Shown one piece after another: positions 8,519 to 29,374 of a stretch of 64,000 bases of DNA; position 1 is the first letter of the stretch; each line of letters starts with the position of its first letter. Both the position numbers and the translations under genes were made by a program. This stretch comes from a bacterium (GTDB lineage Bacteria > Patescibacteriota > UBA1384 > VFKW01), in contig JAUSIS010000013.1 in assembly GCA_030647355.1 (NCBI GenBank), positions 113,117 to 177,116 of the forward strand, given 5' to 3'. The notes under the pieces are model-generated. The model ran no database searches and had not been told where the DNA came from. It saw only the letters and a list, made by a program, of their open reading frames with translations.

Positions 8519-8623
8519 ATCTTAACATTATTAAAAAGCAATTCCAACAAATTACTCTACACCACAATCTTTCTTGCAGCATAGATTAATATGTCGTACA
8601 ATCTATATATACAAGGAGGATTC

Positions 8624-9577
8624 ATGGATCTCAATTCAGCTATTAGGCAATTTCTTGAATATTGCGAGCTCGAAAAAGGACATTCGCCTTTGACAATCAG
8701 GAATTACTCACAATACCTGGAGCGCTTCCATGCATGGGCAAACTTACAGAATATATCAAAACTAGAAGAAATCACTCAGGACACTATAAGGCAATACCGG
8801 CTGTATTTAAATCGAATCCAAGATGAAAACGGCAACAATCTAAAAAAAATCACCATCAATTATCATCTTATAGCCCTGCGCTCGTTTCTGAAATTTATCA
8901 GTAAAAAAGATTTGGCTCAAACTCTGCAAGCAGAAAAAATTGAACTTGCCGATACCGATGAAAGACAAATCAGCTTTCTTAGTCCGGAAGAAGTTGAAAC
9001 ATTGTTAAATCAACCTAATCAAAGCTCAATAATCGGCTTGCGGGATAAAGCAATCCTGGAAACCCTATATTCAACCGGCTTGCGCGTCAGCGAATTAGTC
9101 AATCTTAAACGCGATCAAATCAACATCGAAAAAGGAGAATTTGCAGTCCTTGGTAAGGGCGGCAAGGTTAGAGTTGTCTTCCTTTCCGATCGAGCAAAGA
9201 TTTGTCTTAAGCAATTCCTCGCTAGGCGTAGCGACACTGACGACTATGTCTTTATTCGTTTTGGACGTAAGAAAAACCCGGCATTGCAAATAGGAACTGA
9301 AGAATTAAAACTAACCTCGCGTACAATTCAGAGAATTATCCATCATTATGCAGTAAAAGCGGGCATCATAAAGCCGGTTACACCTCATGTCCTGCGCCAT
9401 AGCTTTGCCACCGACCTACTTTCCAACGGTGCCGACCTTCGTAGCGTCCAAACTCTTCTCGGTCACTCTTCTGTCACCACAACCCAAATCTACACTCACG
9501 TGACAGACCCCCAATTAAAAGAAATTCATAAGCAATTCCACGGCAAAACACTAAAGACACCTCTGGAAAAGAATTAA
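8624..9577 (+). CDS. Tyrosine recombinase XerC/XerD family
   Basis: LRVSEL, HVLRHSFAT and LLGHSSVTTTQIYTHV catalytic-region motifs. RTIQRIIHHYAVKAGI is XerD-like. AAGGAGGA RBS before ATG at 8624. Confidence 0.8.
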   Translation: MDLNSAIRQFLEYCELEKGHSPLTIRNYSQYLERFHAWANLQNISKLEEITQDTIRQYRLYLNRIQDENGNNLKKITINYHLIALRSFLKFISKKDLAQTLQAEKIELADTDERQISFLSPEEVETLLNQPNQSSIIGLRDKAILETLYSTGLRVSELVNLKRDQINIEKGEFAVLGKGGKVRVVFLSDRAKICLKQFLARRSDTDDYVFIRFGRKKNPALQIGTEELKLTSRTIQRIIHHYAVKAGIIKPVTPHVLRHSFATDLLSNGADLRSVQTLLGHSSVTTTQIYTHVTDPQLKEIHKQFHGKTLKTPLEKN

Positions 9578-9591
9578 TATTGGAAAATAAT

Positions 9592-9627
9592 TAGCAAAAA
9601 AAGAAGGACCCCGCCGGTCCTTTTCAT
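9592..9627. terminator. Bidirectional intrinsic terminator between xerD-like gene and GC-rich cassette
   Basis: A7 - GGACCCCGCCGGTCC - TTTTCAT. Confidence 0.55.
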
Positions 9628-10127
9628 GTAGTTGTAGCTCGAGGGAGTATCGTGAAAATAGCTTGTGCAAAACCTGGTTGGCCGATAGGCGGTAGATACG
9701 GGTAGAACTTCACCCGATCCTTTACATCCGGGTGGCAAAGCATACCCTTGATGATTATAAATCCACGATGGCCTTCTTCGGATGTTTGCAGTGGCTTGTA
9801 GCGCGGTCTGCAACCAATACAGCAGCTATTTACTATTATCACTACGAAACGTCCATCGGCCACACCATGCGCTACGTACGCAATCCCTCGACTGTCATTG
9901 TGCTTCAGGGTATTGGCCAGAGCGTCCCCAATCGGCTCCCGGATATTCTGCCATACTGGATCGTCGTCGTTGTTACCCAGAAAACTGAAGAGCGCTTCAC
10001 AGACTGACAAACGCGCCCGACTAGCGCTCCTCTGGGTCGTGACATCCATGTCCAGATAATCCAGACCGATAGGCTCCCTGTCCAATACCTTAGCTACGAG
10101 TCTCTCAAGCGCTGCGCTTTTTGCCAT
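9624..10127 (-). CDS. Hypothetical protein (GC-rich cassette)
   Basis: 167-aa ORF with visibly higher GC than the flanks. Flanked by the hairpin terminator at 9606-9627. No recognisable motif. Confidence 0.35.
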   Translation of the reverse strand: MAKSAALERLVAKVLDREPIGLDYLDMDVTTQRSASRARLSVCEALFSFLGNNDDDPVWQNIREPIGDALANTLKHNDSRGIAYVAHGVADGRFVVIIVNSCCIGCRPRYKPLQTSEEGHRGFIIIKGMLCHPDVKDRVKFYPYLPPIGQPGFAQAIFTILPRATTT

Positions 10128-10253
10128 AATACTCCTCCGTGAAGTTCTTCCCGCAGTGCCCCCGCTTGTAATCCAACTAGCAGCCAGTTTAATTCATATA
10201 TAGCACTAGAACGAATCCTCGTCAAATTGTCAATATTCTAGTATAATCATCTC

Positions 10254-10988
10254 ATGCAGAAAGAAAAATTGACCGACTATTTAAATATCGCTATATCAGA
10301 AATAAACGACGGAAACATGTCATACGTCTGGGGCAACCACCAAGAAGTTCTAGAAAACCGTACAAAATTCTTAGAAAAATCTGGCTTCGATACCAACAAT
10401 TGCGCTGTCATGAGCGTAACACATGGCACAGATATATTGATCGCCGACCAATCATATCGAGGCAAAGGAATGTTTGACCATTCAACTGCCCTAAAAGTTG
10501 ACGCTTTAATGACTCAAGATCCTAAAATTGTTCTTTGCCTACTGATCGCTGATTGCCTGCCAATCGTTTTTTATGATCCAAAAAAAAATATCTTAGCCCT
10601 CGCCCACATGGGTTGGAAAAGCACTAATGAAAAACTTGCCATGAAACTGATCACACTAATGAAACAAAAATTCGGCAGTAATCCAAAGGATATTGTTGTA
10701 TCCATCGGTCCTGGAATACACAAAAAATCTTCTATCTTCCCAAGTCCCGTTCTTCAAGAAAAAACGCTCAATTGGCAGCCTTATTTAAAAAATTTACCGA
10801 ACAACCAAACGTCAGTTGACAATCTCGGATATAACTATCAACAGCTTCTTGATTCGGGTATTATTGCAAAAAATATTGAAATTAACCCAATAGACACAGC
10901 CCAATCGCCGGATTACTTTTCTCACTATCGCTCCGTTCGGACCGGCGAGTCTGAAGGTAGATTCATGGTCGCCGTTCGCTTAAAATAA
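10254..10988 (+). CDS. pgeF: PgeF/YfiH family (Cu-oxidase_4/DUF152) purine nucleoside-processing enzyme
   Basis: HGTDIL...IADCLPIVFYD...ALAHMGWKS motifs of the YfiH family. AT-rich native composition. Confidence 0.7.
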   Translation: MQKEKLTDYLNIAISEINDGNMSYVWGNHQEVLENRTKFLEKSGFDTNNCAVMSVTHGTDILIADQSYRGKGMFDHSTALKVDALMTQDPKIVLCLLIADCLPIVFYDPKKNILALAHMGWKSTNEKLAMKLITLMKQKFGSNPKDIVVSIGPGIHKKSSIFPSPVLQEKTLNWQPYLKNLPNNQTSVDNLGYNYQQLLDSGIIAKNIEINPIDTAQSPDYFSHYRSVRTGESEGRFMVAVRLK

Positions 10989-11169
10989 CAAATCAACGAA
11001 ACTCTCTATGGCATAATTTTCATAGGATAAAATGACAAGCCTGTTTTACATCACTGGAAATTTTTGTATAATCCAGATACGATACAAACCAGCGGGAGGA
11101 AAGTCGTTGAGACATGCAGGAAGACAGACAAGACGGTCAACTTTGCCCTTCAAACAACAAGTCGCCGTA

Positions 11170-11571
11170 ATGTTGCGCACAAGATTCTACATTGGCATGC
11201 TTGTCGCCGGAGAAACCACCGGCACATGGGATGATCCGCTTTTTCAAGCGCCAGATCTCATCCCGCCAATCTCACTTGACGACGAAGAAATCAACATGGT
11301 TGCATTGATGCAAACTGATGATTTCTTGCTGGCAGCCATGGACTACTTGCAAAACGGACTACCGGAAGAGCTTATCGAGAATGGCCTGGACGCATTGGAA
11401 GCGTGGCTTGGATTGGGCATTTTGCGTCTGCAAGTCGGCTTAGCCATTACGGCAGAAGAAATCAGCGAAATCCCGGCAAGTATGTGGGAACTCAACAGAG
11501 ATAAGCTCTGGATAAAGTTCAGAGACGACTACTATTTCTGGAGTGAGCTTTATTTCCCCAAAAGCACCTAA
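11170..11571 (+). CDS. Hypothetical acidic protein (GC-rich cassette); start uncertain
   Basis: ORF in a GC-rich segment downstream of a TTTACA-N16-TATAAT promoter (~11055-11083). Followed by hairpin terminator GGGAAGC...GCTTCCC+T-run at ~11583-11610. Confidence 0.35.
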   Translation: MLRTRFYIGMLVAGETTGTWDDPLFQAPDLIPPISLDDEEINMVALMQTDDFLLAAMDYLQNGLPEELIENGLDALEAWLGLGILRLQVGLAITAEEISEIPASMWELNRDKLWIKFRDDYYFWSELYFPKST

Positions 11572-11655
11572 CTGCACAATGGGAAGCGACAAGCTTCCCT
11601 CTTTTTGTAAACAAAAAAACCCGACGCAATCGTCGGGATATAAGATATAAAATGG

Positions 11656-12273
11656 CTAGCCGCCCGCCGCCGCCTCCTCGGGAGTCACCACATGAATACT
11701 GAATTGACAGTCCAGTGCTGTCTCAAGCCCGAGACGTACCTGGCGAACTTGTTCGCCAGACTCCCCGATCAGCTCGCCGCACTTTGAGATGTAGCGAAAT
11801 CGTAGCAGTCTGCCGGCTTGCATCACTCGAATACCATCCAGATCAGCATTCAAATCCAGCTCACCAATGTCATAGTTGGCATATATCTTGAATAGCTTGC
11901 GAGTCAGCTCATGCGCTTCAGCTCCCCGCGCTTCTCCGCGGTGCCGGGTTCCAATACTCCAAAGCAAGATATATTGACAGGGAGTAACATCCCCCATCCG
12001 CGTTATTAGCTCCAACCACTCATGGGTAACTGGTTTCTCACGATCGAGAAAATAATAATGCCTGCCTGGACGGCCGGTAGCATTGCCATTCTCATAACCT
12101 GAACAGGTGTACCAGAGAACAGTAGTCAAAAGACTATTCTGATACTCCCTATGCGACAGAACAAAGTACGACCGATCCGGGACATAAATCAACCTGATCG
12201 CCTCCCCCAATGTTAATATCAACATACTAAGTCCAAAATTAATTTTCGTCAAATCTGCAAAACAACCGACCAC
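11656..12273 (-). CDS. Hypothetical protein (GC-rich cassette); start uncertain
   Basis: 205-aa ORF. Terminator hairpin CCCGACGATTGCGTCGGG+T-run on the minus strand at ~11615-11645. Confidence 0.35.
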   Translation of the reverse strand: MVGCFADLTKINFGLSMLILTLGEAIRLIYVPDRSYFVLSHREYQNSLLTTVLWYTCSGYENGNATGRPGRHYYFLDREKPVTHEWLELITRMGDVTPCQYILLWSIGTRHRGEARGAEAHELTRKLFKIYANYDIGELDLNADLDGIRVMQAGRLLRFRYISKCGELIGESGEQVRQVRLGLETALDCQFSIHVVTPEEAAAGG

Positions 12274-12487
12274 CCAAGGGCTCTCTTTGCCCCCTTTATT
12301 CAGAGATTAAGACCTTGACAATTCTTTTTGGTATCTCTATAATACGGACACAGTCCGCCAATTGGCTAAATTGTACCTGATCTTTATAAAAGATCATGCC
12401 TGCCAAATAGCACTTTGCGCATTTACCAAGTACTCAAAGCGCTGTTTGGCAAACCCAATCAGCTGTTCCCGGAGTTAGAGGAATGAA

Positions 12488-13045
12488 ATGGTACAAACGG
12501 TGGACAATCCTGTTCGAGTCACCAAAGTGGACCCTCTTGTCCACGCCGTCAATGCGCTCGCGAAGTTATTCGGAGCGCCGTCGTTTCCGGAGGAAAACCT
12601 TGCGGGGTTGACCCTGCAAGGACTTTATAGCAAGATGCTAGCCAGTCAGAGACGAACAAGAAGGCATGTCAGTTGGTGCCTTTCTGGCACAAAGGGTTTC
12701 TACTTCATCGTCAAAGGACATGGCGGGGAAACCGTCGTCCGAATTCATCCGGGGATAAAGACTGGTGATGTAGAGCTGAATGCCAGGTTGAAAAACACCA
12801 AACAAACTGGCCTCGCCCTTGAAGCCCGCTGGGCCTTGGACTATGGTTATGTAATCAGTGCCAAGACCCGAGACGAGAACAGCTTTGATGCTGATTCTCT
12901 CGACTACCAAAAGAATGTCCTTTGTGACATCTTAGGGAGAATCAGCATCATGGCACGTGCCTTAGAAACTGATGAGCCGGAAACCCAGGTAATCCGCCGA
13001 TTCATCGGGGCTCCTGCCTATAAGGCACTGCAACTCGCCGCCTAA
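12488..13045 (+). CDS. Hypothetical protein (GC-rich cassette)
   Basis: 185-aa ORF. Upstream TTGACA-N17-TATAAT promoter at ~12318-12346. Leader contains the palindrome GATCTTTATAAAAGATC. Hairpin terminator CCCAGGA...TCCTGGG+T7 at ~13066-13105. Confidence 0.45.
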   Translation: MVQTVDNPVRVTKVDPLVHAVNALAKLFGAPSFPEENLAGLTLQGLYSKMLASQRRTRRHVSWCLSGTKGFYFIVKGHGGETVVRIHPGIKTGDVELNARLKNTKQTGLALEARWALDYGYVISAKTRDENSFDADSLDYQKNVLCDILGRISIMARALETDEPETQVIRRFIGAPAYKALQLAA

Positions 13046-13215
13046 ACCGCCAGTTATCTGGCATCCGAACCTCACCCAGGATGAAATCAAATTCTCCTGG
13101 GTTTTTTTATACCCATAATCTCAAAAGTCAGTCGAATGCTAGGCTCGCTTGTTTGACGTAAAGACAACTTTATGGTTTACTAAAGCCACTGTTGGTTTTT
13201 TAGGGGGACTGATAA

Positions 13216-13680
13216 ATGAGAATGTTCGCATTGTCAGAAGATCTTCGGTTACAGAGCACTAAGCAAGGCGATGACTTCGTGGTTCGCTTCCCGCTAGGAA
13301 GAAATGGCATTCCTGGCGTTGCACTTTACAACGCTGGGAGAAACAACACAGCCGAAGCACCCGTCGTCAATCTTCCAAGCGACCAGGCACTCATTCTGGC
13401 ACACCGGATCACGGCTCGCTGTCGTGATCATGTCTTTTCGAAAGTCACCGAGGTCAAATCTCTCGGAGACGACTGCTATTACCATATCATACTCAAGTGC
13501 GGCTTCACCTACAGGTTCACGAATGACGCCGATTTCCGGCGGAATATCAAACCGGAAGTCGGGGACATGATCCTCATCCACTTCAACGCCCGCAGAGGCA
13601 AACACTTGGTCATAAAGTCCAGCGGGCAAAGATCGTTTCCGGCCTGCGAGATCACCGACGATGACATCATCGCCGAATAG
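13216..13680 (+). CDS. Hypothetical protein (GC-rich cassette)
   Basis: 154-aa ORF with a GGGGGA RBS. Hairpin terminator GGGGAAC...GTTCCCC+T-run at ~13700-13730. Confidence 0.45.
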   Translation: MRMFALSEDLRLQSTKQGDDFVVRFPLGRNGIPGVALYNAGRNNTAEAPVVNLPSDQALILAHRITARCRDHVFSKVTEVKSLGDDCYYHIILKCGFTYRFTNDADFRRNIKPEVGDMILIHFNARRGKHLVIKSSGQRSFPACEITDDDIIAE

Positions 13681-13934
13681 CCAATCCACACTATTCACGG
13701 GGAACACTACACGTTCCCCTATTTTTAATAAAAAAGACGGAATCCGTGTCCTCTTAAGAAACCAAGATCGCTGCCTCGCCACCGTTTGACAAAAACCTAT
13801 TTTTATGCTAATATATAACATCAAGACAAACCTCGTAATATCTTCCTTCAACCTATGGACAGCGCCTTGCGTACAAAAACAGTATTCAGAGCGCTGTTCA
13901 TAGCATCATATCACTTCGAAGGAGGATCCGTTTC

Positions 13935-14471
13935 ATGGAAAAAATCATCGTTATGGCATTAAGCGCGGTGAAAGTGCTGTTTGGCAAGGTGATTCTCTCT
14001 TGCCAAACAGCCGAGACACTTCAGGAGATCCAGGAAGTTATATCACAATGTCCTGACTGGAGAAAGTCCCTCGACAAGGTCAGCTTCTCCGAGAAGACTG
14101 GCTTATCGCTCTGCCGCCTGATCCACGGAGGTGCCTTATACCTCCAGCTGCGAAACCCCGTCGGACTGGTTAACTCGATCAGGATCGGAGTAATCGTAGC
14201 AGGAGACTCCGAATTCCAAACACCAACGACCTTGAACTTGCTCTTCTGTCAGTTGAAGGATCGGAAAGAATGGCGATTGGAAAAAGCAAGATGTGATCTT
14301 GCGGGAGTCATCGAGCCCGAGCCCATTCTGCGGCTTACGGAGCTACTTGGCCCAAATGGGCTTCCCGAACTAGGAGAAACCCTCAACCAGGCACCAATCG
14401 AACAAACCCGGGAAATCAGGGAGTTTCTGGACTCCTGGGTCCAGCAGCAGGTAACGACCGCAACCGCCTAG
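13935..14471 (+). CDS. Hypothetical protein, paralog A of a tandem pair (178 aa)
   Basis: Shares the block TGLSLCRLIHGGALYLQLRN with TLCQAVIGGALCLRFQE of the downstream 178-aa ORF. Upstream motif GCGCTGTTCATAG is shared with the paralog. GAAGGAGGA RBS. Confidence 0.5.
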   Translation: MEKIIVMALSAVKVLFGKVILSCQTAETLQEIQEVISQCPDWRKSLDKVSFSEKTGLSLCRLIHGGALYLQLRNPVGLVNSIRIGVIVAGDSEFQTPTTLNLLFCQLKDRKEWRLEKARCDLAGVIEPEPILRLTELLGPNGLPELGETLNQAPIEQTREIREFLDSWVQQQVTTATA

Positions 14472-14728
14472 CGACACCAACGCACACCAGAAACATCCTC
14501 ACCCTACAAAACCTCATTCCCCCGAGGCAAGACAAAGCACCACGCTTTTCACCTCGGGGCTTTGTTATTTATAGGCATTTTATAATTTTTAATTGACAAA
14601 ACTCAACAAATATGTGATTTTCAGATTAATATATTGTTCCTTTCAACCCCTCCTAGTGCTTATGGGCAGCACTTTGGATACCTAACTCAAGTATAAAAGG
14701 CATCCGAGGCGCTGTTCATAGACTACAT

Positions 14729-15265
14729 ATGGAGGACATAATGAATATTGTGCAAATGGCTCTTGTAGCGCTACGTGAACTGTTCGAAACTACAATGTCG
14801 GAAGAGTTCCCTGACCTGGGAAGCATCGCTTCCGAGCTGGAAAACATACGGCTTGGCAAATTCAAGTATTCCTACGACAACAACGGATTAACGCTCTGTC
14901 AAGCGGTAATCGGTGGCGCACTCTGCCTTCGTTTTCAAGAATCATCTCGGAGTAACACAGGCAAAGATCGGCTCACAGTCTGGCTCATCGGCGTGAGCTC
15001 CCTGAAGTGCAGCCAACTCACTCTTAGCCTCGGGTACAACCTAATAGGAATTGGGGTAGCGGAACTAGGTGCTATCAACTGCTCTTGGAGCACATCAGAT
15101 GTAGTTGCAAGCGGCGAGCCGATCAGTGCTTTCTTAAGACTGCTCCGGTTAGACGACTACAAAATGCTGGAAAGCGCCCTGAAAGCCAAGGAGGGTTTGG
15201 ATGACGTGCGCTACCTGAAGTACCTTCTCGATCTCTGGCGCCAGCGTTACCCAGAAAGCAAGTGA
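14729..15265 (+). CDS. Hypothetical protein, paralog B of a tandem pair (178 aa)
   Basis: Same length and conserved central block as 13935-14471. Upstream GCGCTGTTCATAG motif. Followed 12 nt later by a small Zn-ribbon ORF. Confidence 0.5.
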   Translation: MEDIMNIVQMALVALRELFETTMSEEFPDLGSIASELENIRLGKFKYSYDNNGLTLCQAVIGGALCLRFQESSRSNTGKDRLTVWLIGVSSLKCSQLTLSLGYNLIGIGVAELGAINCSWSTSDVVASGEPISAFLRLLRLDDYKMLESALKAKEGLDDVRYLKYLLDLWRQRYPESK

Positions 15266-15277
15266 AAGGAGCCCTGT

Positions 15278-15502
15278 ATGTTTCTTGCCCAATGTATCTT
15301 TGGTTTGTTCGTAGGCAGTATGATGTGCTATGTGTTGTGGTTCGTTTTCTTCGATCGCGAATGTCCCAAGTGCCATTCGCACTACATCAAGCACAACGAT
15401 GAATGCATTGCCGGAGGCGCCTACTTTCGAACCGTATTCTGCCGGAACTGCAGATACGTTCTCGAAACCAAGACTATCTGCGCCCCTATCTGCCATATAT
15501 GA
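15278..15502 (+). CDS. Small membrane-anchored zinc-ribbon protein (74 aa)
   Basis: N-terminal TM helix followed by CPKC...CRNC (two CxxC pairs). Tightly linked downstream of paralog B. Confidence 0.45.
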   Translation: MFLAQCIFGLFVGSMMCYVLWFVFFDRECPKCHSHYIKHNDECIAGGAYFRTVFCRNCRYVLETKTICAPICHI

Positions 15503-15594
15503 CCCCTGACGACATGTCTCGGGTCTCTTTTTATCTTTACAGAGTGAACCTTCGGTGTATAATACTAATAACGCTGCACCTTAAGGAGTAGAAG

Positions 15595-16506
15595 ATGGGA
15601 AAGATTCTCGCCCTTATGTGTCCCGGACAAGGATCGGCACACATTGGCATGGGTGAGGATCTTTATCAAACCTCGTCCTATGCCCGAACCGTTTACCATT
15701 TCGCCGACGACTATCTAAGGGGTTATCTCCGACAAATCCTGCCTTTTGAGCATTCCGACCTGACCTTGAGTAGTATCTGCTTCGAGGGGCCCCGGGAACT
15801 TCTGGAGCTACCCTCGATTGCGCCGCTGGCTGTTTTTGTCACCAGTATCGCTAACCTCCGTCTTCTTGAGGAGATAGCCGAAGAGGTAGAATGGATAGTC
15901 GCCGGACACAGCCTCGGTGAATATACTGCCTTGGTTGCCTCTAGAGTTCTGACTTACCAACAAGCCCTCTCACTAGTTCTTATCCGAACCAGATTGATGG
16001 TTCATCACGCGAGTCGAATAAACGGCGCAATGGTAGCTACTCTGGGGTTAACTGAAGCACAGGTTGCCGAAATCTGCCAGAAACACCAGCCCACAGGTGT
16101 GATCGTCATGGCAAATTACAACTGTCCGGGACAAATCGTGCTCTCGGGAGATAAGCTTGTACTTGAGAATGCCTGTCAAGACATTCTCCGCCTTGGAGGA
16201 AAGACGCGCGAACTCAATGTCGGCGGTCCCTGGCATTCCCCCCTGATGCAGCCTGCCGCTGATAAGTTCAAACCGCATCTTCGTAGAGCCAAGATCGCCT
16301 CACCCACAGGAACGCTCTACCTAAGCGGTACCGGACGGAAGGTTTCCGCACCTGCAACCATCCGCCATCACCTGCGTATTCAAATGGTATCTCCCGTACT
16401 CTGGGAGAAAACCATTCGCAACATGCTAAGAGATGGAGTAACCGACTTTATCGAGCTCGAACCGAGCAGGATACTAAGGGGATTTCTCAAGCGCATCAAG
16501 TCCTAG
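15595..16506 (+). CDS. fabD: Malonyl-CoA:ACP transacylase family acyltransferase (FabD-like)
   Basis: CPGQGS N-terminal motif, GHSLGEY active-site nucleophile elbow, ANYNCPGQIVLSG, and PWHSPLMQPAADKF as in FabD. GC-rich. Confidence 0.8.
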   Translation: MGKILALMCPGQGSAHIGMGEDLYQTSSYARTVYHFADDYLRGYLRQILPFEHSDLTLSSICFEGPRELLELPSIAPLAVFVTSIANLRLLEEIAEEVEWIVAGHSLGEYTALVASRVLTYQQALSLVLIRTRLMVHHASRINGAMVATLGLTEAQVAEICQKHQPTGVIVMANYNCPGQIVLSGDKLVLENACQDILRLGGKTRELNVGGPWHSPLMQPAADKFKPHLRRAKIASPTGTLYLSGTGRKVSAPATIRHHLRIQMVSPVLWEKTIRNMLRDGVTDFIELEPSRILRGFLKRIKS

Positions 16507-16583
16507 CCATCTAGGACTTTTTTTATGCTCAATAGACACTACACTAATACAACAACATACCAGTTTTTCACAAGCAAAGCTCG

Positions 16584-16796
16584 GTGTATAATATAGCTAT
16601 GCTAAAAAAATATCTACTCTATCTGCTAATGGGGCTGGTTGCTGAAGGCATCATCCGAGGGTTTTTCTATTTTGAAGATCGCTACCAAGCCACTCATCCT
16701 GTAAAGCAAAAAATCAATATTGAGAAAGTTGACCCAAAATATCGTCAGGACCTGCAAGACCTGAAAGATCTCAAAGATACCATTAACGGACAATAA
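16584..16796 (+). CDS. Small membrane protein with C-terminal DLKDLKD motif
   Basis: One TM helix. C-terminus ...DLQDLKDLKD matches the ...DLKDLKDLY C-terminus of the 47351-47653 small membrane ORF. Confidence 0.35.
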   Translation: MYNIAMLKKYLLYLLMGLVAEGIIRGFFYFEDRYQATHPVKQKINIEKVDPKYRQDLQDLKDLKDTINGQ

Positions 16797-16916
16797 TCTC
16801 CGGCCACAACCTCAAAAGCGCCTGTTGTAATATTAGCTAACCGGTTGACTTTGGCTGACAATTATAGTATACTTTTCGCATACTGAACGACCGAACGACT
16901 ATTTTGGAGGTAACCA

Positions 16917-17192
16917 ATGTCTGCTGCACAGATACCCGCCTCTCCCCCAAGTCTTGAGATTCCGACGCCCCCCACCGCCACCACCTACCGAGATGAAGGC
17001 CACGATGGCTCTCCTCCGGTTCAGGTCGGATGTACTCAATTCAACTCACATACTTGCCCTCTTCGCTTCCGGGGCCGCAACGAACCCTCGGAATGGTCAG
17101 GGGCCAAGTATGAGTACGATCCTCTACCGCCCCTGGACCACGACCCTGTGTGGTGCGCTACCTGCCCCGACAGGAGGCAGAAGATCAAATGA
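16917..17192 (+). CDS. Small Pro-rich Cys-containing protein (possible Zn ribbon)
   Basis: Strong GGAGGT RBS. CTQFNSHTC...CATC cysteine pairs. TTGACT-N17-TATACT promoter at ~16845-16873. Terminator at 17459-17492. Confidence 0.4.
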   Translation: MSAAQIPASPPSLEIPTPPTATTYRDEGHDGSPPVQVGCTQFNSHTCPLRFRGRNEPSEWSGAKYEYDPLPPLDHDPVWCATCPDRRQKIK

Positions 17193-17458
17193 ACTATTCG
17201 GGCTTTGCTGGATTGCGCGAATTCGTCAAGGCAATGACCACCTGTGGCAAGAGCATACGCTTGGATTAAGTCCTACTGATCCAAGCAGCAGCCGAAAAGG
17301 CCAAGCTCAGCTAGGAGCAGCGCATTGAGATCTATGAGATACTCGCTGCATCAGGATCTGATAGCATAGCGCAGAGTCGGCTGGAGAAACTCATGACTGG
17401 CACGGAAAGCCAAGTCACATCCGGCGCCGCCTAGGCGCCCGAACTTCATCCCACCCCA

Positions 17459-17492
17459 CCCCCGCCCTTTCCCAGAAAGAGCGGGGTTTTTT
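17459..17492 (+). terminator. Intrinsic terminator, family CCCACCCC...stem...TTTTTTCATACC
   Basis: Hairpin CCCCGCCCTTTC-CCAGA-GAAAGAGCGGGG followed by T6 and CATACC. Confidence 0.6.
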
Positions 17493-17506
17493 CATACCTC
17501 CACCGC

Positions 17507-17535
17507 TTGACCAGTTGTTTATGTAATGCAATAAT
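17507..17535 (+). promoter_or_regulatory. sigma70-type promoter TTGACC-N17-AATAAT upstream of purD
   Basis: Starts 14 nt after the TTTTTTCATACC terminator tail. Confidence 0.45.
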
Positions 17536-17600
17536 CCAGGCAACGCATTGTAGTAAATTCTGCATAACAACAAACCATAGAAACGGAGGAAAACACAGTA

Positions 17601-18878
17601 ATGCGTGTACTTATCGTCGGAAAGGGCGGACGTGAGCATGCTCTAACATGGATGATCACCCAAAGCCCAAGAAAGCCGGAAATTCTGGCAGCACCGGGCA
17701 ATCCCGGCATCGCCAAGTTCGGCACGTGCTATCCAATTTCGGACACAAACCTGGACGGCATCGTCAACCTGGCAGTTGAGAAAAAGGTCGACATCGTTGT
17801 AGTCGGCCCTGAAAACCCTCTGGACGCTGGCTTAGTTGACCGCTTGGCAGACGCCAATATTCTGGCATTCGGCCCCACAGCCGCCGCCGCGCGACTCGAG
17901 TCATCCAAGCTTTTTGGCAAAGGGATCATGGAAGCCGCCGGTGTCACCACTCCTGACTATCGGGCGTTCAACAATCCCGGGAAGGCGCTCAAGTACCTGC
18001 GAGAGCTGCATCTCAGCGACTTCCCGATTGTCATCAAAGCCGACGGTCTCGCTTTTGGCAAAGGCGTCTATATCTGCCTGACTCTGGAAGCCGCCGAGCG
18101 AGCAGTCCAAAACCTCATGGTCGCACGGCTTCTCGGAGAAGCCGGTGACGCCATCCTGGTCGAGGACTTCGTGAGCGGATTGGAATGCTCGGTACTCGCC
18201 GTCTGCGACGGCGAACGCTTCGTCTATTTCCGCGCCATTCGCGACTACAAGCGAATCGGCGTTGGAGACACAGGCGAGAACACTGGCGGAATGGGAGCTG
18301 TTACACCGGTTCCTGGATGCGACATCGCCTTCCACGAATGGGTAGCAGATCACATCATCGCACCCATACTCGCAGAGATGAGACGGCGCGGCATCCCCTA
18401 CAAGGGCTGCCTCTACCTCGGCTTGCTGATCAAGGACGGCGTGATCTATGTGTTGGAATTCAATGTTCGCTTCGGCGACCCTGAAACCCAACCGGCCATG
18501 CTGATGCTTGACGAGGATCTCCTGAAACTGATGCTGGATGCGAGCCACGGCAATCTTGCCATCTCCCGTCCTGCTAGGTGGCTCAATGGAGCAGCCGCCT
18601 GCATCGTCGGCGCCGCCAATGGCTATCCTGGCAATTACGCTAAGGGCAAAGCCATCTACGGCATCAACGAGGTCGAAACTGACGACACAATCGCCTTCCA
18701 AGCCGGTACTGCGCGTCACGGAAACATACTCGTCACCGACGGCGGCAGAGTAGTCGGCGTAACGTCTTACGACGCCAATAGTCTGCCGGCAGCGCTTGAC
18801 AAGTCCCTGGCAGGAATCAGTAAAATCCGCTGCTCGGACATGATCTGGCGCCCCGACATCGGCCACAACGCCGTCTGA
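17601..18878 (+). CDS. purD: Phosphoribosylamine--glycine ligase (GAR synthetase)
   Basis: MRVLIVGKGGREHALTW N-terminus, PGNPGIA, an ATP-grasp core and PurD C-domain all colinear with PurD. Very GC-rich relative to the backbone. Confidence 0.85.
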   Translation: MRVLIVGKGGREHALTWMITQSPRKPEILAAPGNPGIAKFGTCYPISDTNLDGIVNLAVEKKVDIVVVGPENPLDAGLVDRLADANILAFGPTAAAARLESSKLFGKGIMEAAGVTTPDYRAFNNPGKALKYLRELHLSDFPIVIKADGLAFGKGVYICLTLEAAERAVQNLMVARLLGEAGDAILVEDFVSGLECSVLAVCDGERFVYFRAIRDYKRIGVGDTGENTGGMGAVTPVPGCDIAFHEWVADHIIAPILAEMRRRGIPYKGCLYLGLLIKDGVIYVLEFNVRFGDPETQPAMLMLDEDLLKLMLDASHGNLAISRPARWLNGAAACIVGAANGYPGNYAKGKAIYGINEVETDDTIAFQAGTARHGNILVTDGGRVVGVTSYDANSLPAALDKSLAGISKIRCSDMIWRPDIGHNAV

Positions 18879-18912
18879 CCAAATCATCCGGAACTAAACA
18901 CCGGCAACCAAC

Positions 18913-18932
18913 GCCCCTTCGGGGGCTTTTTT
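18913..18932 (+). terminator. Intrinsic terminator after purD (GCCCCTTCGGGGGC+T6+CATACC)
   Basis: Perfect tetraloop hairpin followed by a T-run. The same hairpin type recurs at ~19674-19700. Confidence 0.65.
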
Positions 18933-18946
18933 CATACCAGTTAATC

Positions 18947-18975
18947 TTGACAAAAAAGCGTTTATACCGTACAAT
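18947..18975 (+). promoter_or_regulatory. Consensus sigma70-type promoter TTGACA-N17-TACAAT
   Basis: Located right after the TTTTTTCATACC terminator of purD. Drives the 19089 cassette. Confidence 0.55.
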
Positions 18976-19088
18976 CACATGTTGGTTGCACCTCTGGAAT
19001 CTTCCTTGATTGGCTGCGCTTTGGATATTGTTCAAATCAGTATTCAAACCGTTGCCAACCACCAACGAAAAAATAGGAGGATTACCGT

Positions 19089-19661
19089 TTGAATGCACGC
19101 CAACGAATGATCTGTTTTGTCCAAGGGATAGTTGCCGGACTCTGGAACAACCCGAAGTTCGAAACCGCTATCCTACCTGAGGCAACCGGGCTGAAACGGC
19201 TCGAGAATAGTTTCAGCCAGTACCCGGCACCCGCGGAACCGAACCGTATCATAACGGAGTACGGGCATGATGTCTTGAGTATTGGCTACATGACACTCGG
19301 CGGGCTGTTGACTTTCAACTGCTACCCCTACTCTTACATCATGTGTTGCATCAGGACTACCGTCGGACCTGACAGCCTGGAACAACTCTTCTCTCTCGGT
19401 TGGAACCTCAAAACCGACCAGATGGATAGGGTTGGAACGCCTAACTCAAATATCCTGTATCAAGGACTAAACGGCGCTTTCCTGGATCGGCTCAACGAAC
19501 AACTCGATGTTCTTGGACGGATACTGGCCGGCAGGTATCCCGGTGCTGACATCTATGGCTATTACACCGACCAGCTCAAGCAAATGCTGATGGCGGACGA
19601 GAGTCCTAGTGCGGTATTGTTCCGCGATCTACTCCTTGAATGCGGCTCGATCAGAGCCTAA
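19089..19661 (+). CDS. Hypothetical protein (GC-rich cassette)
   Basis: 190-aa ORF with a GGAGGA RBS. Own promoter at 18947-18975 and terminator at ~19674-19700. Confidence 0.45.
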   Translation: MNARQRMICFVQGIVAGLWNNPKFETAILPEATGLKRLENSFSQYPAPAEPNRIITEYGHDVLSIGYMTLGGLLTFNCYPYSYIMCCIRTTVGPDSLEQLFSLGWNLKTDQMDRVGTPNSNILYQGLNGAFLDRLNEQLDVLGRILAGRYPGADIYGYYTDQLKQMLMADESPSAVLFRDLLLECGSIRA

Positions 19662-19761
19662 CGATCCCCTACCAACGCCCCTTCGGGGGTTCTTTTTTTA
19701 TTTCCATGCGTTTGGGTTGACCTTGATAATCGCTCAGCTTATACTCAAGCAAAGGAGCATT

Positions 19762-20370
19762 ATGCAAAAAAGTCCAGAGACATTTACGGAATTAGACCAC
19801 GACGAAGTGCAACGAAAAAGAGATATTGCCGAAATCGAACATTTTAAATTTAAGGGTGCCTGGAAAAGAATAGGCGCCGATTGCTCTGGAGATTCCAGAG
19901 GAGCATGCGCACGAAGCAATAGTGGCAAATGTGGTGTCTACCATAACTGTGAAGCTGCCTCGGCAGCAATGGGGCCCGAGGAAATATGCCCAGCTCACAC
20001 ATCCGAAGAAGATGCTCATAAAGAAGCGGAAGCTATTTACGAAAAAGTTAGTCAACTGGCAAAATTCCATGATATTAGCGATAAGTCCTTTGAATTAAAA
20101 CATGAAATTATCGCTACTAACGGTGATAAAGTTCAACCGAAATATATACTTGATAAAACAGACGAAAGATCAACTGAAGATTTAGCTTGGTATGATCCTG
20201 AGGACATTAAAACTAGTCTAATACTCAAAACAAACTTCCAAAAAGATAGTGATCGGGAAGGGAATGATAATTCTTCTTTCGAGCTTCCTCCGTCTCCTAC
20301 CCCGGAACAGCTAGGAATACTAAAAGAATTCTGCGAAATTCATGGATTATTTAGATCCGAACAACAATAG
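19762..20370 (+). CDS. Hypothetical acidic protein with Cys-rich segment
   Basis: Start at MQKSPETF after an AAAGGAG RBS. Promoter TTGACC-N17-TATACT at 19716-19745. Confidence 0.4.
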   Translation: MQKSPETFTELDHDEVQRKRDIAEIEHFKFKGAWKRIGADCSGDSRGACARSNSGKCGVYHNCEAASAAMGPEEICPAHTSEEDAHKEAEAIYEKVSQLAKFHDISDKSFELKHEIIATNGDKVQPKYILDKTDERSTEDLAWYDPEDIKTSLILKTNFQKDSDREGNDNSSFELPPSPTPEQLGILKEFCEIHGLFRSEQQ

Positions 20371-20450
20371 AGAAACTATATTACTCGAAAAAGCCCGCTT
20401 GACCAGTTACCGACGGGGTGTATAATCCAGACAAAGAAAAGAAAGCTTGA

Positions 20451-21335
20451 ATGAATAACCTTAGAGATAAACCACTTTTTATAGTCACCCTTTTAGCAGC
20501 ACTACTAGCTTTTTGTATATTCAAGAATGAGCTAAGTCAAAAAACAATTTTCTTGGGAATTGCACATACGAACTTATTACAGTTGATTCTCATATTTGCC
20601 ATTCTCCTTTCGCTATCAGCATATTTATACGCATTAGATTTCGTTAGATATGGCACCAGTTTCGAGAATAACATCATCTTGAGACGTTTTATCCTCGTCG
20701 GACACTTTTTTTATATCTTAGCAGTTTTCTTTCCTATAATTATTGGGTTAGTTTGGCTCATAGTCTGGTTATTAAATATTATCTTAGCAAACGTAATTGT
20801 TAATCAGATAGTTACAGTAGTAGTTCTTAGTCTGTCATTTTTCATAAGTAGTTACTTTGCAGACAAAATGAAAAGAAGCCAGAGGAATCAGTTGGCAGAA
20901 AAAATACAAGAGAAAACCGAAGAAAATATGGAAAGAGCATTTGAGCTATATACACAAAAATTTTACCCATCTTTCATTTTAGAAAGCTATAACACCGCTC
21001 TTTCCTTGATTCGAACTACGCTTGAATCAAAAGGCTATAGCACTATTAATCTGCCTGCTACAACGCTCCTGCTGCTCGCCAAGAAAGAAAAGGTTATTTC
21101 ACCATCAGCGCAGGAAAAATTAAATAAACTAAAGATTCTTAGAAATAAAGCAGCCCACATGAATATTACTTTGAGTAAAGCAGATGCTGATTTTGCTAAG
21201 GAAATAGTCAAAAGCATATCAAAACAATTAGATTTCCATCAGTTACTCGAGAAGGAAACGGAAGAAGACCAGCAGAAGTTTAACAAACAAATTAAAACAA
21301 TACAAAATTATATAAAAAAAATTAGAAATAAATAA
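20451..21335 (+). CDS. Membrane-anchored protein with C-terminal HEPN-like (Rx4H, DUF4145-like) domain
   Basis: About four N-terminal TM helices. C-terminal LNKLKILRNKAAHMN carries an Rx4H HEPN motif in a helical context. Very AT-rich. Confidence 0.45.
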   Translation: MNNLRDKPLFIVTLLAALLAFCIFKNELSQKTIFLGIAHTNLLQLILIFAILLSLSAYLYALDFVRYGTSFENNIILRRFILVGHFFYILAVFFPIIIGLVWLIVWLLNIILANVIVNQIVTVVVLSLSFFISSYFADKMKRSQRNQLAEKIQEKTEENMERAFELYTQKFYPSFILESYNTALSLIRTTLESKGYSTINLPATTLLLLAKKEKVISPSAQEKLNKLKILRNKAAHMNITLSKADADFAKEIVKSISKQLDFHQLLEKETEEDQQKFNKQIKTIQNYIKKIRNK

Positions 21336-21399
21336 ATGATTCTCTTTTGCAGGAAGACGAAATAAGCTAACGCTTCTAAACTCTAATTAAAAAGAATAG

Positions 21400-21665
21400 C
21401 TCCCGCTTCATCGCTCCTTTGTTTCTTTGAAAAGGAGAAGTCAATTACGCTCCCAAAGAAGCCTCGGCCACAGGATGGAATCCTAGTGGAACGCTGGGAG
21501 TGTCTTTGAGGAAGTAATTTATTTTCGACGCTTCCCAAGAAGTCGTGCAGGGGTATGGGATTGTAAGGGACATAGGGGGCGGCATCGAAACGAGCCCCCT
21601 TACCCCTTACATACCCTGGCGCTGTCAGCGCCAAAAACCCAGGCATGTCCCATGCCCTCAAACAA
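21400..21665. ncRNA. GC-rich structured intergenic element (candidate small RNA; strand and class unknown)
   Basis: GC-rich island between two AT-rich genes. Nested hairpins CCTGGCGCTGTCAGCGCCAAAAACCCAGG and GGGGGCGGCATCGAAACGAGCCCCC. The 99-aa minus-strand ORF across it looks spurious. Confidence 0.3.
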
Positions 21666-21719: not shown

Positions 21720-22439
21720 ATGTTGGAGCTCAAAGATGTAACTAAAAAATTCGGCCCCATAACCGCCGTAGATAATTTATCTTTTGAAATAAACGAAGGC
21801 GAAATAGTCGGCCTCATCGGCCCAAACGGCTCCGGCAAAACCACCGCCCTCAAAATGATTGCCGGCCTCTACCGCCCAACTTCCGGCAAAATAACCATCA
21901 AAAACCACGATGTCGCCAAAGACGCCGAAGAAACTCGCGCTCTTCTCGGCTACATTCCGGATGAACCGGCTGTCTACAGCAAACTGACCGGCGACGAATT
22001 CCTCAATTTTGTCGGAGAAACATTTGGCATCCCCGCCGACAAACGCCAAAGCGCCATTGCCGAACTCCACAAACAATTCCCAATGGAAGAACAAACCGGC
22101 GGCTATTTTGAAGATTATTCCCGCGGCACCCGCCAAAAATTTATGATCATGGCCGCCTTACTTCACAAATCGCCTTTGCTTTTGATTGACGAGCCGATAG
22201 TCGGCCTCGACCCCTCGAGCGCCCACACCGCCACTCGCCTCTTCTCCGAATATGCCAAAGAAGACAAAAGAGCCATTCTCGTCTCCACCCATTCTCTGGC
22301 AGTCGCCCAAGAACTCTGCGACCGCTTCATCGTCTTATCAAAAGGCAAAATGGTTGCCCAAGGGTCGCTGAGCGAACTGCGCAAAGACGCCCAAACCGAC
22401 GGCTCTTTAGAGCAAATCTATCTCAAACTGGCAGAATAA
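21720..22439 (+). CDS. ABC transporter ATP-binding protein
   Basis: Walker A GPNGSGKTT, signature region, Walker B LLLIDEP, and an H-loop. Confidence 0.85.
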   Translation: MLELKDVTKKFGPITAVDNLSFEINEGEIVGLIGPNGSGKTTALKMIAGLYRPTSGKITIKNHDVAKDAEETRALLGYIPDEPAVYSKLTGDEFLNFVGETFGIPADKRQSAIAELHKQFPMEEQTGGYFEDYSRGTRQKFMIMAALLHKSPLLLIDEPIVGLDPSSAHTATRLFSEYAKEDKRAILVSTHSLAVAQELCDRFIVLSKGKMVAQGSLSELRKDAQTDGSLEQIYLKLAE

Positions 22440-22441
22440 TC

Positions 22442-25165: not shown

Positions 25166-25741
25166 ATGACCCTAATGAAACGTCTGATCATGGCAGTCCT
25201 GGCAGTATTTCTCATTTCTACCTCCCGCACCACCGCCGACCAGCTGGACACCCAGTTCAACTCCTCCCTTACCTGGAACCAGGACGGCATAACCAGCAAA
25301 TACATCCATAGGGAGGCCTACTTTGCCCATCTACGGGAGAATGAGGTGAACATCGGTGCTAGAGTCTCTGATAATCTGACACTGTACGGCGCCTACATCA
25401 CCAACAACCAAGGGGTAGATCGGGCCGGTATCGTCATCGCCATATCCCAACCGCTGGATAGTAAATGGCATGCCTCCGCCAGTCTTCACCTCTACAAAGG
25501 GCTGAACTCCGCTCCCGACAGGTTCAAATGGACCTTGGTCATCGCCAAACCGGTAAGCAAACACTGGTTAGTCGGTATCTACAACTTCGGCAACAGCGTG
25601 CACGGCAATCCCAATAAGTATTGGGAAGGCGGGCCAGCGCTGATTTATCGAAATGGCGCAACAACCATCCCCATTTTCTTTCTCCTGAAAGACGAGGGAA
25701 GAAAGGGAATCCAAGCCAACCTGAACTTCGCGCTAAAATAG
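25166..25741 (+). CDS. Secreted hypothetical protein (signal peptide, beta-rich)
   Basis: N-terminal signal MKRLIMAVLAVFLISTSRTTA. GC-rich. Overlaps or abuts the downstream radical SAM gene. Confidence 0.45.
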   Translation: MTLMKRLIMAVLAVFLISTSRTTADQLDTQFNSSLTWNQDGITSKYIHREAYFAHLRENEVNIGARVSDNLTLYGAYITNNQGVDRAGIVIAISQPLDSKWHASASLHLYKGLNSAPDRFKWTLVIAKPVSKHWLVGIYNFGNSVHGNPNKYWEGGPALIYRNGATTIPIFFLLKDEGRKGIQANLNFALK

Positions 25742-25752
25742 GAGGAAGCAAG

Positions 25753-27168: not shown

Positions 27169-27186
27169 ACCCCCACAAACCCCCAC

Positions 27187-27217
27187 CCAGCTCTTTTCAA
27201 AAAAGAGCTGGTTTTTT
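27187..27217 (+). terminator. Intrinsic terminator after radical SAM gene (CCAGCTCTTTT-CAAA-AAAAGAGCTGG+T6)
   Basis: Perfect 11-bp stem preceded by CCCCCACAAACCCCCACC. Confidence 0.65.
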
Positions 27218-27218
27218 A

Positions 27219-29363: not shown

Positions 29364-29374
29364 TCCAATTCACC

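Follow-up and report, generated by a model that had tools for sequence, protein, structure and literature searches.

The window analysed here is a 64,000-nt stretch of contig JAUSIS010000013.1, from a metagenome-assembled Patescibacteria genome, and our subject is a class of genes rich in guanine and cytosine (GC) that is set into its housekeeping backbone. The main GC-rich block occupies 9.6–19.7 kb, and smaller GC-rich patches lie elsewhere. Proteins of this genome carry locus tags of the form Q7S37_* and accessions such as MDO8513772 and MDO8513779. The gene content is consistent with Patescibacteria (PAP2 and VTT proteins, TrmB regulators, a peptidoglycan-binding protein, and a type IV pilus operon), and the named relatives of pgeF, a gene inside the block, carry the label ‘Patescibacteria group bacterium’ among the few named matches checked for taxonomy. 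Most GC-rich genes form a unit of their own. Such a unit opens with a sigma-70-type promoter and a strong Shine-Dalgarno (SD) sequence, in many cases with a long structured 5′ leader between them; it holds a single gene, rarely two, and closes with an intrinsic terminator, which in many cases follows a C-rich tract. The features of the block and of the related outer units are listed below; the unit genes are given as c1, c2, and so on, or by family name, with ORF standing for open reading frame, aa for amino acids, GC3 for GC at third codon positions, and R1 for a terminator family described further on.

8591–9577, plus strand: Xer-type tyrosine recombinase gene (Pfam Phage_integrase and SAM_1), left flank of the variable zone
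9604–9622: two-way hairpin terminator common to xerD (plus strand) and c1 (minus strand)
9624–10127, minus strand: c1, 167 aa, function unknown, GC 0.51, no Pfam, PHROG, or PADLOC match; occupies the slot between xerD and pgeF
10254–10988, plus strand: native pgeF/YfiH-family gene, GC 0.39 (Pfam Cu-oxidase_4, 8.6e-47); promoter-like site 10219–10247
11045–11599, plus strand: c2 unit; promoter 11045–11072, ORF 11107–11571 (154 aa, GC3 0.54), terminator 11581–11599; no family match
11620–12273, minus strand: c3 unit; ORF 11656–12273 (205 aa, GC 0.50), terminator 11620–11637
12315–13108, plus strand: c4 unit; 12/12 promoter 12315–12343, leader hairpin 12399–12454, ORF 12488–13045 (185 aa), terminator 13075–13108
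13216–13719, plus strand: c5 unit; ORF 13216–13680 (154 aa, GC3 0.63), terminator 13699–13719
13786–14569, plus strand: c6 unit; promoter 13786–13814, leader hairpin 13851–13906, ORF 13935–14471 (178 aa), terminator 14519–14569
14658–15502, plus strand: c7-c8 unit; leader hairpin 14658–14724, c7 14741–15265, c8 15278–15502 (74 aa, Cys-rich)
15536–16519, plus strand: FabD-like acyltransferase unit; promoter 15536–15563, ORF 15595–16506 (GC 0.52), terminator 16498–16519
16845–17500, plus strand: c9 unit; promoter 16845–16873, ORF 16917–17192 (91 aa, Pro/Cys-rich, GC 0.59), R1 terminator 17445–17500
17507–18938, plus strand: purD unit; promoter 17507–17535, purD 17601–18878 (GC 0.58, GC3 0.67), terminator 18913–18926 followed by TTTTTTCATACC
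18947–19696, plus strand: c10 unit; promoter 18947–18975, leader hairpin 19005–19064, ORF 19089–19661 (190 aa), terminator 19677–19690
25166–27226, plus strand: c11 and a B12-binding radical SAM gene, GC-rich, outside the main block; R1 terminator 27171–27226
28186–29414, plus strand: c12 (28257–28556) and c13 (28722–29363) units; an 11/12 promoter each, R1 terminators 28578–28633 and 29359–29414
63424–63955, plus strand: c16 unit, GC-rich; R1 terminator 63900–63955

The plus-strand ORF of c5 is favoured over an overlapping minus-strand ORF because of its ribosome-binding site and terminator. The original prediction held that each GC-rich gene has its own promoter, ribosome-binding site, and terminator, and this is largely true. 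Sigma-70-like sites number 37 between 8.5 and 21.5 kb, against 15.8 ± 3.8 in shuffles, and near-consensus promoters lie directly upstream of c2 (11045), c4 (12315, 12/12), c6 (13786), the fabD-like gene (15536), c9 (16845), purD (17507), c10 (18947), and h202 (19717). A strong SD (GGAGG) precedes most unit ORFs, and hairpins followed by a T-run stand 3′ of c1, c2, c3, c4, c5, c6, the fabD-like gene, the c9 unit, purD, and c10. Terminator-like sites occur overall at chance frequency (13 versus 13.7), with the good ones placed exactly at gene ends. The exception is c7-c8, the only operon-like pair among the units. The individual promoters and terminators imply that each gene is transcribed and insulated on its own. 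Fourteen sites between 8.5 and 61.5 kb score at least 11/12 as promoters; nine precede GC-rich genes and five precede backbone or AT-rich genes, so the backbone shares its promoter consensus with the units.

The cargo consists mostly of lineage-restricted orphans of 75–205 aa, together with a few stand-alone enzymes (PurD and the FabD-like acyltransferase). PurD is full length with all three GARS domains and scores 430 bits against NCBIfam TIGR00877 (cut-off 288). The acyltransferase matches Pfam Acyl_transf_1 and is named ‘FabD-like’ only, because its score of 203 bits against TIGR00128 fabD falls below the equivalog cut-off of 260.9. Stand-alone enzyme genes recur as GC-rich single-gene units: purD (17601–18878), the FabD-like gene (15595–16506), and a dCTP-deaminase-like gene (32937–33776) in the window, and a purN-like gene (11861–12508) in a related contig, L010. 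Members of this bacterial group are not generally known to have the full pathways to which such enzymes belong.

Composition, strand skew, and codon use

The GC content of the window is 44.0%, with 1-kb windows ranging from 0.285 to 0.566. In 600-bp windows, the standard deviation of GC is 0.061, about three times the value of ~0.020 expected from the binomial for a homogeneous sequence; other long loci bearing pgeF relatives mostly give 0.024–0.049, and two of them, L006 and L012, reach 0.066. A pgeF-profile scan of metagenomes returned 38 loci (30–52% identity, none syntenic), which were used as a composition control only. The backbone set comprises dnaE, ndk, the M16 peptidase, VTT, two PAP2 genes, xerD, pgeF, two TrmB genes, HAD, ychF, rpsF, ssb, efp, the pilus operon, trpS, and the phosphomutase, with GC of 0.37–0.45 and GC3 of 0.35–0.48; groEL has a GC of 0.48. 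The GC-rich class contains about 20 genes, with GC of 0.47–0.59 and GC3 of 0.51–0.68. All nine segments that the original prediction had singled out as GC-richer fall in this class, across the same GC3 range. In the main block, GC is 0.51 for c1, 0.47–0.52 at 11.1–16.5 kb, and 0.52–0.59 at 16.9–19.7 kb. Outside it, values are 0.52 at 25.2–27.2 kb, 0.50–0.53 at 28.3–29.4 kb, 0.53 at 32.9–33.8 kb, 0.54 at 53.6–54.6 kb, 0.55 at 55.3–56.2 kb, and 0.51 at 63.4–63.9 kb. An ABC transporter pair at 21720–24082, missing from that earlier list, is GC3-rich as well. In the GC-rich genes, GC at first codon positions (GC1) exceeds that at second positions (GC2), which is in turn below GC3; this pattern fits real coding sequence and the called frames.

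Two further measures separate the classes. The GC-normalised dinucleotide signature of Karlin gives a delta* of 90 between units and backbone, compared with 31 ± 10 (maximum 63) for random splits of the backbone against itself. Arg and Lys make up 6.6% and 4.1% of residues in the units, versus 3.9% and 6.5% in the backbone. The dinucleotide and amino-acid differences are independent evidence for the compositional split. The uneven GC3 and composition claimed at the outset are therefore real, as seen in the two groups of per-gene GC3, the spread of GC among windows, and the delta* value.

Other compositional features of the window are of different kinds. The GC peak at 5211–6668 has a GC2 of 0.63 and a GC3 of 0.40, and is an amino-acid effect rather than a sign of foreign origin. 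It encodes a Pro/Thr/Ala-rich protein whose first ~69 residues are ~80% conserved in the sister contigs L010 (5462–6490) and L011 (4555–6324), with a low-complexity body that varies from 342 to 589 aa among the three. AT-rich islets (GC 0.28–0.33) occur at 20451–21335, 56393–58224, and 49700–51100. One encodes a membrane protein of 294 aa whose matches to DUF4145 and to HEPN/AbiU2-like families are weak, another holds a trio of a HIT/DcpS_C-like gene, a NUDIX gene, and an AAA_18 gene, and the third is a 1.4-kb stretch without a long ORF. These islets look like a second, AT-rich class of accessory DNA.

The units carry the strand asymmetry of their host. On the coding strand, the third-position GC skew of backbone genes is –0.32 for plus-strand genes and +0.33 for minus-strand genes; the GC-rich units give –0.24 (17 plus-strand units) and +0.22 (three minus-strand units; Mann-Whitney p = 0.0018). 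Plus-strand units and plus-strand backbone genes do not differ significantly (p = 0.14). At four-fold sites of the backbone, C and G stand at 0.38 and 0.09 on the plus strand, and at 0.18 and 0.27 on the minus strand. The cumulative GC skew declines steadily over the full 64 kb without a turning point, and the 17 of 20 units that lie on the C-rich strand may face the replication fork head-on. We rejected the large excess of C over G at third positions as a cassette-specific codon preference: the excess reverses in minus-strand units and matches the strand effect of the backbone, so the C-ending codons of the units reflect a host strand effect. The host-like skew is what would be seen either if the units were long resident or if they were exchanged with their orientation relative to replication kept; in terms of process, the choice lies between exchange that preserves gene orientation and a process that keeps GC high in place.

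Same-strand genes of the two classes also differ in synonymous choice. Codons of the NNY type end in C at a frequency of 0.65 in units versus 0.42 in the backbone, NNR codons end in G at 0.50 versus 0.22, and GC at four-fold sites is 0.58 versus 0.47. Codon adaptation to high expression was rejected as the cause of the high GC3. Highly expressed backbone genes barely raise their GC3 (groEL 0.49, ssb 0.45, rpsF 0.35, efp 0.37), and the units favour CGG, AAG, and GAG, the codons that the highly expressed set avoids.

These data bear on the main rival to gene exchange, in which the units are native, fast-evolving families and little or nothing was imported. Their GC would have been raised or kept high in place, for example through GC-biased gene conversion where recombination is frequent (a hotspot) or through selection acting on units that are highly expressed. 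The host-like skew and the host-type promoters are what this explanation would predict. The dinucleotide signature, which remains unlike the backbone after normalisation for GC, speaks against it, as do the small rise of GC3 in expressed backbone genes and the units’ use of codons that those genes avoid.

Shared leader hairpin and terminators

Genes c4, c6, c7, and c10 share a homologous hairpin in the 5′ untranslated region, with the core CAGCRCUUUG ... CAAAGCGCUGUU. The hairpin has 20 base pairs, with 93% of cells paired and nine pairs showing compensatory changes. Its covariation score is 0.615 versus 0.378 in shuffles, and none of 500 shuffles reached the observed value; pairing falls to 29–43% when the partners are slid by one to three columns. 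The folds are more stable than those of shuffles (z –3.3 to –6.2). In the predicted folds of the c6, c7, and c10 leaders, an anti-SD element (CUUCCU or CCUCC) brackets the hairpin and pairs with the SD GGAGG, so that the leader appears to clamp the ribosome-binding site and thereby regulate translation.

A further copy of the leader lies at 121–177 of L050, a 2-kb unclassified contig of unverified taxonomy (run SRR30681598), upstream of a c4 homologue named P0217. This contig has the same unit layout as the window units. The two leaders are ~88% identical over ~70 nt; c4 and P0217 are 52% identical in coding sequence and 37% in protein, which places the leader under stronger constraint than the protein. 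A conserved leader peptide was considered and rejected, as a 1-nt indel in L050 breaks the reading frame. The leader matches no Rfam family at the gathering score (one chance-level match, to the L20 leader), a 20-mer from it has no exact match in IMG/VR, and a covariance-model scan of 370–460 kb of related loci found no further copies. The 17-mer AAAGYGCTGTTTGGCAA from the 3′ half of the c4 leader hairpin (12436–12452) recurs with one mismatch at 13971–13987, inside the c6 coding region, where it encodes VKVLFGK. The recurrence may be the trace of a relation between leader and N-terminal coding sequence, or an alternative-pairing site.

The genes behind the leader are orphans. Tandem paralogues c6 and c7 are 27–30% identical, and a profile built from both matched only c6 and c7 among 5.8 billion proteins; P0217 is the one homologue of c4 among 1.84 billion representative proteins. 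We rejected c4 and c10 as sequence paralogues of c6/c7 (hhalign E 0.13; no match in a local search with hidden Markov models). AlphaFold2 models are unusable, with a confidence (predicted local distance difference test) of 39 for c6 with c7 and 40 for c4 with P0217; both place helices, five to six strands, and helices in that order, a weak hint that c4 and c6 share a fold.

In its predicted pairing of an upstream CUUCCU/CCUCC element with a GGAGG ribosome-binding site, the leader of c6, c7, and c10 resembles RNA thermometers and the leaders of type I toxin mRNAs. It differs from them in that the downstream genes encode soluble proteins of 175–190 aa, not small toxins, and in that it matches no catalogued family. 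We therefore regard the hairpin as a candidate new cis-regulatory RNA. A conserved, uncatalogued leader common to otherwise unrelated orphan genes is unusual, and it is the most novel detail of the locus; to our knowledge, almost no regulation has been characterised in Patescibacteria.

Terminators are shared as well. The R1 family ends five units, namely c9, the radical SAM gene, c12, c13, and c16. It is built of a C-rich, G-poor tract, the stem CCC[A/G]GCYCTTT-loop-AAAGRGC[T/G]GGG, a T-run, and CAT(ACC). The R1 stem shows compensatory changes, and every R1 copy closes a GC-rich unit at its 3′ end. Searches with a covariance model of R1 gave copies in this genome only, with none in about 307 kb of related loci, nor in the 370–460 kb covered by the leader and terminator scans. 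The terminators of purD and c10 are near copies of each other, and the motif TTTTTYRTACC occurs four times (0.23 expected), always just 3′ of a unit terminator.

A structured repeat of ~140 nt is also present in two copies (53609–53744 and 60824–60959) that are 88–92% identical, with predicted folding energies of –63 and –65 kcal/mol (z –4.6 and –5.7). The c14 promoter, with TTGACA at 53759, follows one of the copies directly, so that c14 probably begins downstream of 53615. Either a mobile repeat of small size or a non-coding RNA would fit this element.

Sister contigs and the neighbouring recombinase

A scan of species-representative genomes with pgeF gave no close relative, just matches of ~35% in unrelated taxa. 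The closest pgeF relatives lie on two Logan contigs, L010 (SRR22388218; 57% identity) and L011 (SRR29243425; 53%). Both keep the order dnaE-bPH-GT4-ndk-M16-(P/T-rich)-VTT-PAP2-PAP2-xerD-(small minus-strand ORF)-pgeF, at 46–82% amino-acid identity. The similarity ends at the pgeF stop codon, and the content downstream is wholly different:

Window, 3′ of pgeF: about a dozen GC-rich units
L010, 3′ of pgeF: 313-aa hypothetical gene, purN-like gene, and purD, with GC 0.53–0.55 versus 0.42–0.46 in the backbone
L011, 3′ of pgeF: twelve different genes at near-backbone GC (0.37–0.50), with no purD within 10 kb

The orphan genes of the window have no detectable relative in L006, L009, L010, or L011. 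A conserved flank with the orphans absent from the sisters means that the region is variable and does not hold the same genes in the same positions throughout. This comparison with sister genomes had been proposed as a check, and its outcome is as expected for variable cargo behind a syntenic flank from dnaE to pgeF. The view of pgeF as a native gene inside the block likewise holds. Judged by sequence comparison, the locus can be classed as a region of plasticity, with differing content behind a conserved flank.

Two genes of the block, purD and c1, have relatives on the sister contigs. The best relatives of purD lie on Patescibacteria-like contigs (a JGI/ENA fragment at 56%, L009 at 51%, L006 at 50%), where the gene is once more GC-rich and stands as a unit by itself; its named matches, at 45–48%, come from Deltaproteobacteria, Schekmanbacteria, Binatia, and Myxococcota. 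In L010, purD lies 1.9 kb from pgeF and is 52–58% identical to the window copy, a divergence like that of backbone genes. The simplest reading is that purD has stood near pgeF since before the lineages of the window and L010 split, and has been GC-rich ever since. In L006 (ERZ27297441), a stand-alone purD with a GC of 0.536 stands beside three GC-rich hypothetical genes (0.49–0.56, GC3 up to 0.70), surrounded by dciA, recF, dnaN, and dnaA at GC 0.35–0.40. Of the L006 orphan units, hyp191 alone was read from end to end, and its layout is that of the window units, with promoter, leader hairpin, SD, and terminator. The second gene is c1. L011 carries a c1 homologue in the same slot and orientation (29% identity, E 4e-7) with a GC of 0.42, and the ORF in the same slot of L010 shows no similarity to c1. 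This slot holds either a fast-diverging gene or a gene replaced by a divergent version from a GC-richer relative.

The variable zones of the window (21720–24082; 25166–27168) and of L011 (12920–14616; 17065–18858) have two kinds of gene in common, a pair for an ABC transporter and a radical SAM gene of the B12-binding type. The counterparts are not orthologues: identity between the ATPases is 33%, and the two radical SAM genes are not significantly similar. What recurs is the type of function, supplied by different genes.

The sister contigs bear in both directions on the explanation by in-place GC enrichment. A purD that lies near pgeF and is GC-rich in the window and L010, and GC-rich again in L006, agrees with it, as do the c1 homologue in the same L011 slot and the divergence of c6 and c7 to 27% identity with both still GC-rich. 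It does not account for the absence of the orphan genes from syntenic sisters. In L011, the GC of the c1 homologue and of most of the variable region is like that of the backbone, so an intrinsic hotspot effect would not be general.

Since the window comes from a metagenome-assembled genome, the alternation of GC might in principle be a chimera of assembly or binning, with GC-rich fragments of another organism joined to the backbone. We consider this barely credible. A separate Logan assembly (run SRR13727527) is identical to the window over 20,735 bp and covers all main-block junctions. GC switches at about 20 junctions, every one of which coincides with the edge of a promoter or terminator. 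L006 and L010, which come from other samples, are patterned in the same way, and the GC-rich units show the host strand skew.

The recombinase beside the block had been pointed to as its starting point. Against NCBIfam models it scores 266 bits for XerD (cut-off 329.6), 256 for XerC-like (below cut-off), and 224 for the archaeal-type XerA (cut-off 220, passed). It reaches 132 bits against the integron integrase model TIGR02249 (cut-off 265), in a match split into two stretches, and 88 against PRK15417 (435). It is 71–76% identical and syntenic in L010 and L011. On scores and synteny, it is best viewed as a conserved Xer-type housekeeping neighbour, not a capture enzyme, and its position beside the block is most likely coincidental; adjacency is no evidence of a role in capture.

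An integron-like or Xer-dependent array, in which the recombinase would insert cassettes beside its own gene, is very improbable on this evidence. The locus does resemble integron arrays, including attC arrays without an integrase, in that a tyrosine recombinase directly upstream adjoins short, co-oriented, mostly single genes of largely unknown function, and in its fast cargo turnover. It differs in that the Xer gene, which is of housekeeping type, is oriented toward the array, and its product falls short of the cut-off for integron integrases. A search of both strands of 9400–21500 for attC-like RYYYAAC-N40-130-GTTRRRY pairs found none, versus 1.9 expected by chance, and the cassettes have their own near-consensus promoters and not a common Pc; an integron proper was rejected on these grounds. 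GC-rich units also lie at seven other places in the window and beside dnaA in L006 with no recombinase nearby, and the GC skew without a turning point indicates no replication terminus or dif region in the window, dif being the chromosomal site where a Xer-exploiting integrative element (IMEX) would integrate.

Marks of a classical island (a tRNA or tmRNA site, flanking direct repeats, a dedicated integrase) are missing from the window: it contains no tRNA or tmRNA gene, the repeat search gave no flanking direct repeats and no boundary repeats besides terminators and leaders, and its sole recombinase is the conserved, syntenic Xer protein. A prophage or plasmid origin was rejected. Ten orphan genes have no PHROG match, and PADLOC and Pfam searches with the orphan genes were also negative; the main block has no DNA match among 50,697 phage records and only a trivial 113-bp purD match among plasmid records; IMG/VR holds no relatives of c3, c4, and c10, the three orphans scanned; and the flanks are chromosomal housekeeping genes.

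Origin of the units

On balance, we think it somewhat probable that the locus is a plasticity zone whose moron-like units come from an accessory pool of higher GC, shared among Patescibacteria, and that the zone was enlarged by local duplication and divergence. In such a scheme, the GC-richer pool would circulate among related Patescibacteria. New genes would arrive either through recombination between conserved flanking regions or as additive insertions, with DNA uptake as the most plausible first step, and the block would then grow as its genes duplicate locally and diverge fast. Which way the genes moved, by what route, and from which donors is inference. If exchange proceeded by recombination at syntenic flanks, it would preserve orientation, which would also explain the host-like skew. 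The loci with pgeF relatives span 36–59% GC, with taxonomy checked for the few named pgeF matches, and this range makes GC-richer donors within the group plausible. The c1 homologue of L011, with its normal GC, fits replacement by a divergent version from a relative.

The scheme of a shared pool explains why content varies behind a flank that is conserved, why regulatory modules are shared and promoters are of the host type, and why c1 has a same-slot homologue of different GC. It also accounts for the orphan relatives, which, where found, lie on contigs with the same unit layout.

The window’s own type IV pilus operon offers a possible route for the uptake. This pilus-like operon (36723–46664, minus strand) encodes a PilC-like T2SSF protein and three proteins with a prepilin N-methylation motif, together with a 1796-aa protein with weak Kelch/beta-propeller matches. 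It is a possible DNA-uptake or host-attachment machine.

Several points weigh against a shared, circulating pool. The analysis identified no donor and revealed no insertion scars. The units carry the strand-specific third-position skew of the host, and purD is GC-rich in three diverged genomes, neither of which would be expected from simple recent import. The variable region of L011 is not GC-rich. The GC excess is larger at two-fold than at four-fold sites, which a pure shift in mutation bias does not obviously give. The two gene classes were themselves defined by GC, so a direct GC3 test between them is circular. The comparison with the sisters covers the left boundary of the main block only, with the other GC-rich patches left out.

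In-place maintenance of GC, discussed above, is the main rival and fits the purD and skew data well; weighed against the signature of the units and the state of L011, it seems to us unlikely. Less probable still is recent, repeated capture into preferred sites from a higher-GC organism outside the group, such as the bacterial host of a symbiont, which the original prediction had proposed. In its favour, the units depart from the backbone in GC, codon usage, and amino-acid composition, the sisters differ in cargo, and the named purD matches come from four outside groups. The best purD matches, however, are on Patescibacteria-like contigs and not in those phyla. Apart from P0217, c4 and the c6/c7 pair have no homologues among billions of proteins, which is odd for genes from abundant free-living hosts, and the lone c4 homologue shares the non-coding leader and sits on a short contig with the same layout. 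The host-like skew argues against recent arrival.

The proposal of repeated foreign acquisition therefore stands in part. Distinct accessory genes do lie in a variable region, but the independence and recency of their arrival were overstated, as seen from the skew, the long-standing GC-rich purD near pgeF in L010, the c1 slot homologue of L011, the c6/c7 paralogues, and the shared leader and terminators. A donor among higher-GC hosts or partners is not indicated, given where the relatives of purD and c4 are found.

The units recall phage ‘morons’, extra genes in lambdoid prophages reportedly described by Juhala, Hendrix and colleagues in 2000. Like morons, they have their own sigma-70 promoter and factor-independent terminator and a composition unlike their neighbours, and they are inserted between conserved syntenic genes with a presence that varies among relatives. 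They differ in residing in a cellular Patescibacteria chromosome, with no surrounding phage genes and no PHROG matches, and in being stacked about a dozen in a run, GC-richer than the host, with several sharing leader RNA and a terminator family. A survey of aquifer Patescibacteria has described genomic islands and single-gene transfers, mostly between Patescibacteria (PMC12455944). The present locus is similar as a compositionally deviant, variable accessory region in a streamlined genome of the Candidate Phyla Radiation, with transfers within Patescibacteria proposed here too. The survey is without per-gene promoter, leader, and terminator modules, a GC-rich direction, or host-like skew, and no integrase, tRNA, or direct-repeat boundaries were found at this locus. 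Islands and gene transfer in Patescibacteria, like phage morons, are thus already known; what is unusual here is the deviation toward higher GC and its persistence across diverged genomes alongside a host-like skew.

Foreign DNA is usually AT-rich, and the deviation seen here is the opposite of that rule. Part of the GC signal also appears old, which calls for caution with methods that equate deviant composition with recent transfer. A bolder idea, to which we give a low probability, is that Patescibacteria keep a dedicated GC-rich accessory pool in standardised modules, each built of a promoter, a conserved leader hairpin clamping the ribosome-binding site, an ORF, a C-rich tract, and a terminator. 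The conserved non-coding flanks of the modules would both regulate the genes and serve as homology handles for the swapping and duplication of highly variable ORFs. If this were true, it would amount to a cassette system without an integron, and the lasting high GC combined with the host-like skew would be the mark of a real compositional force on this class of genes. In four or more Patescibacteria-like contigs, accessory genes stand as individually insulated units with a GC above that of the core. The genomes of Patescibacteria are tiny and their cells rely on other cells, and the way in which they gain and express accessory genes bears on their adaptation to hosts.

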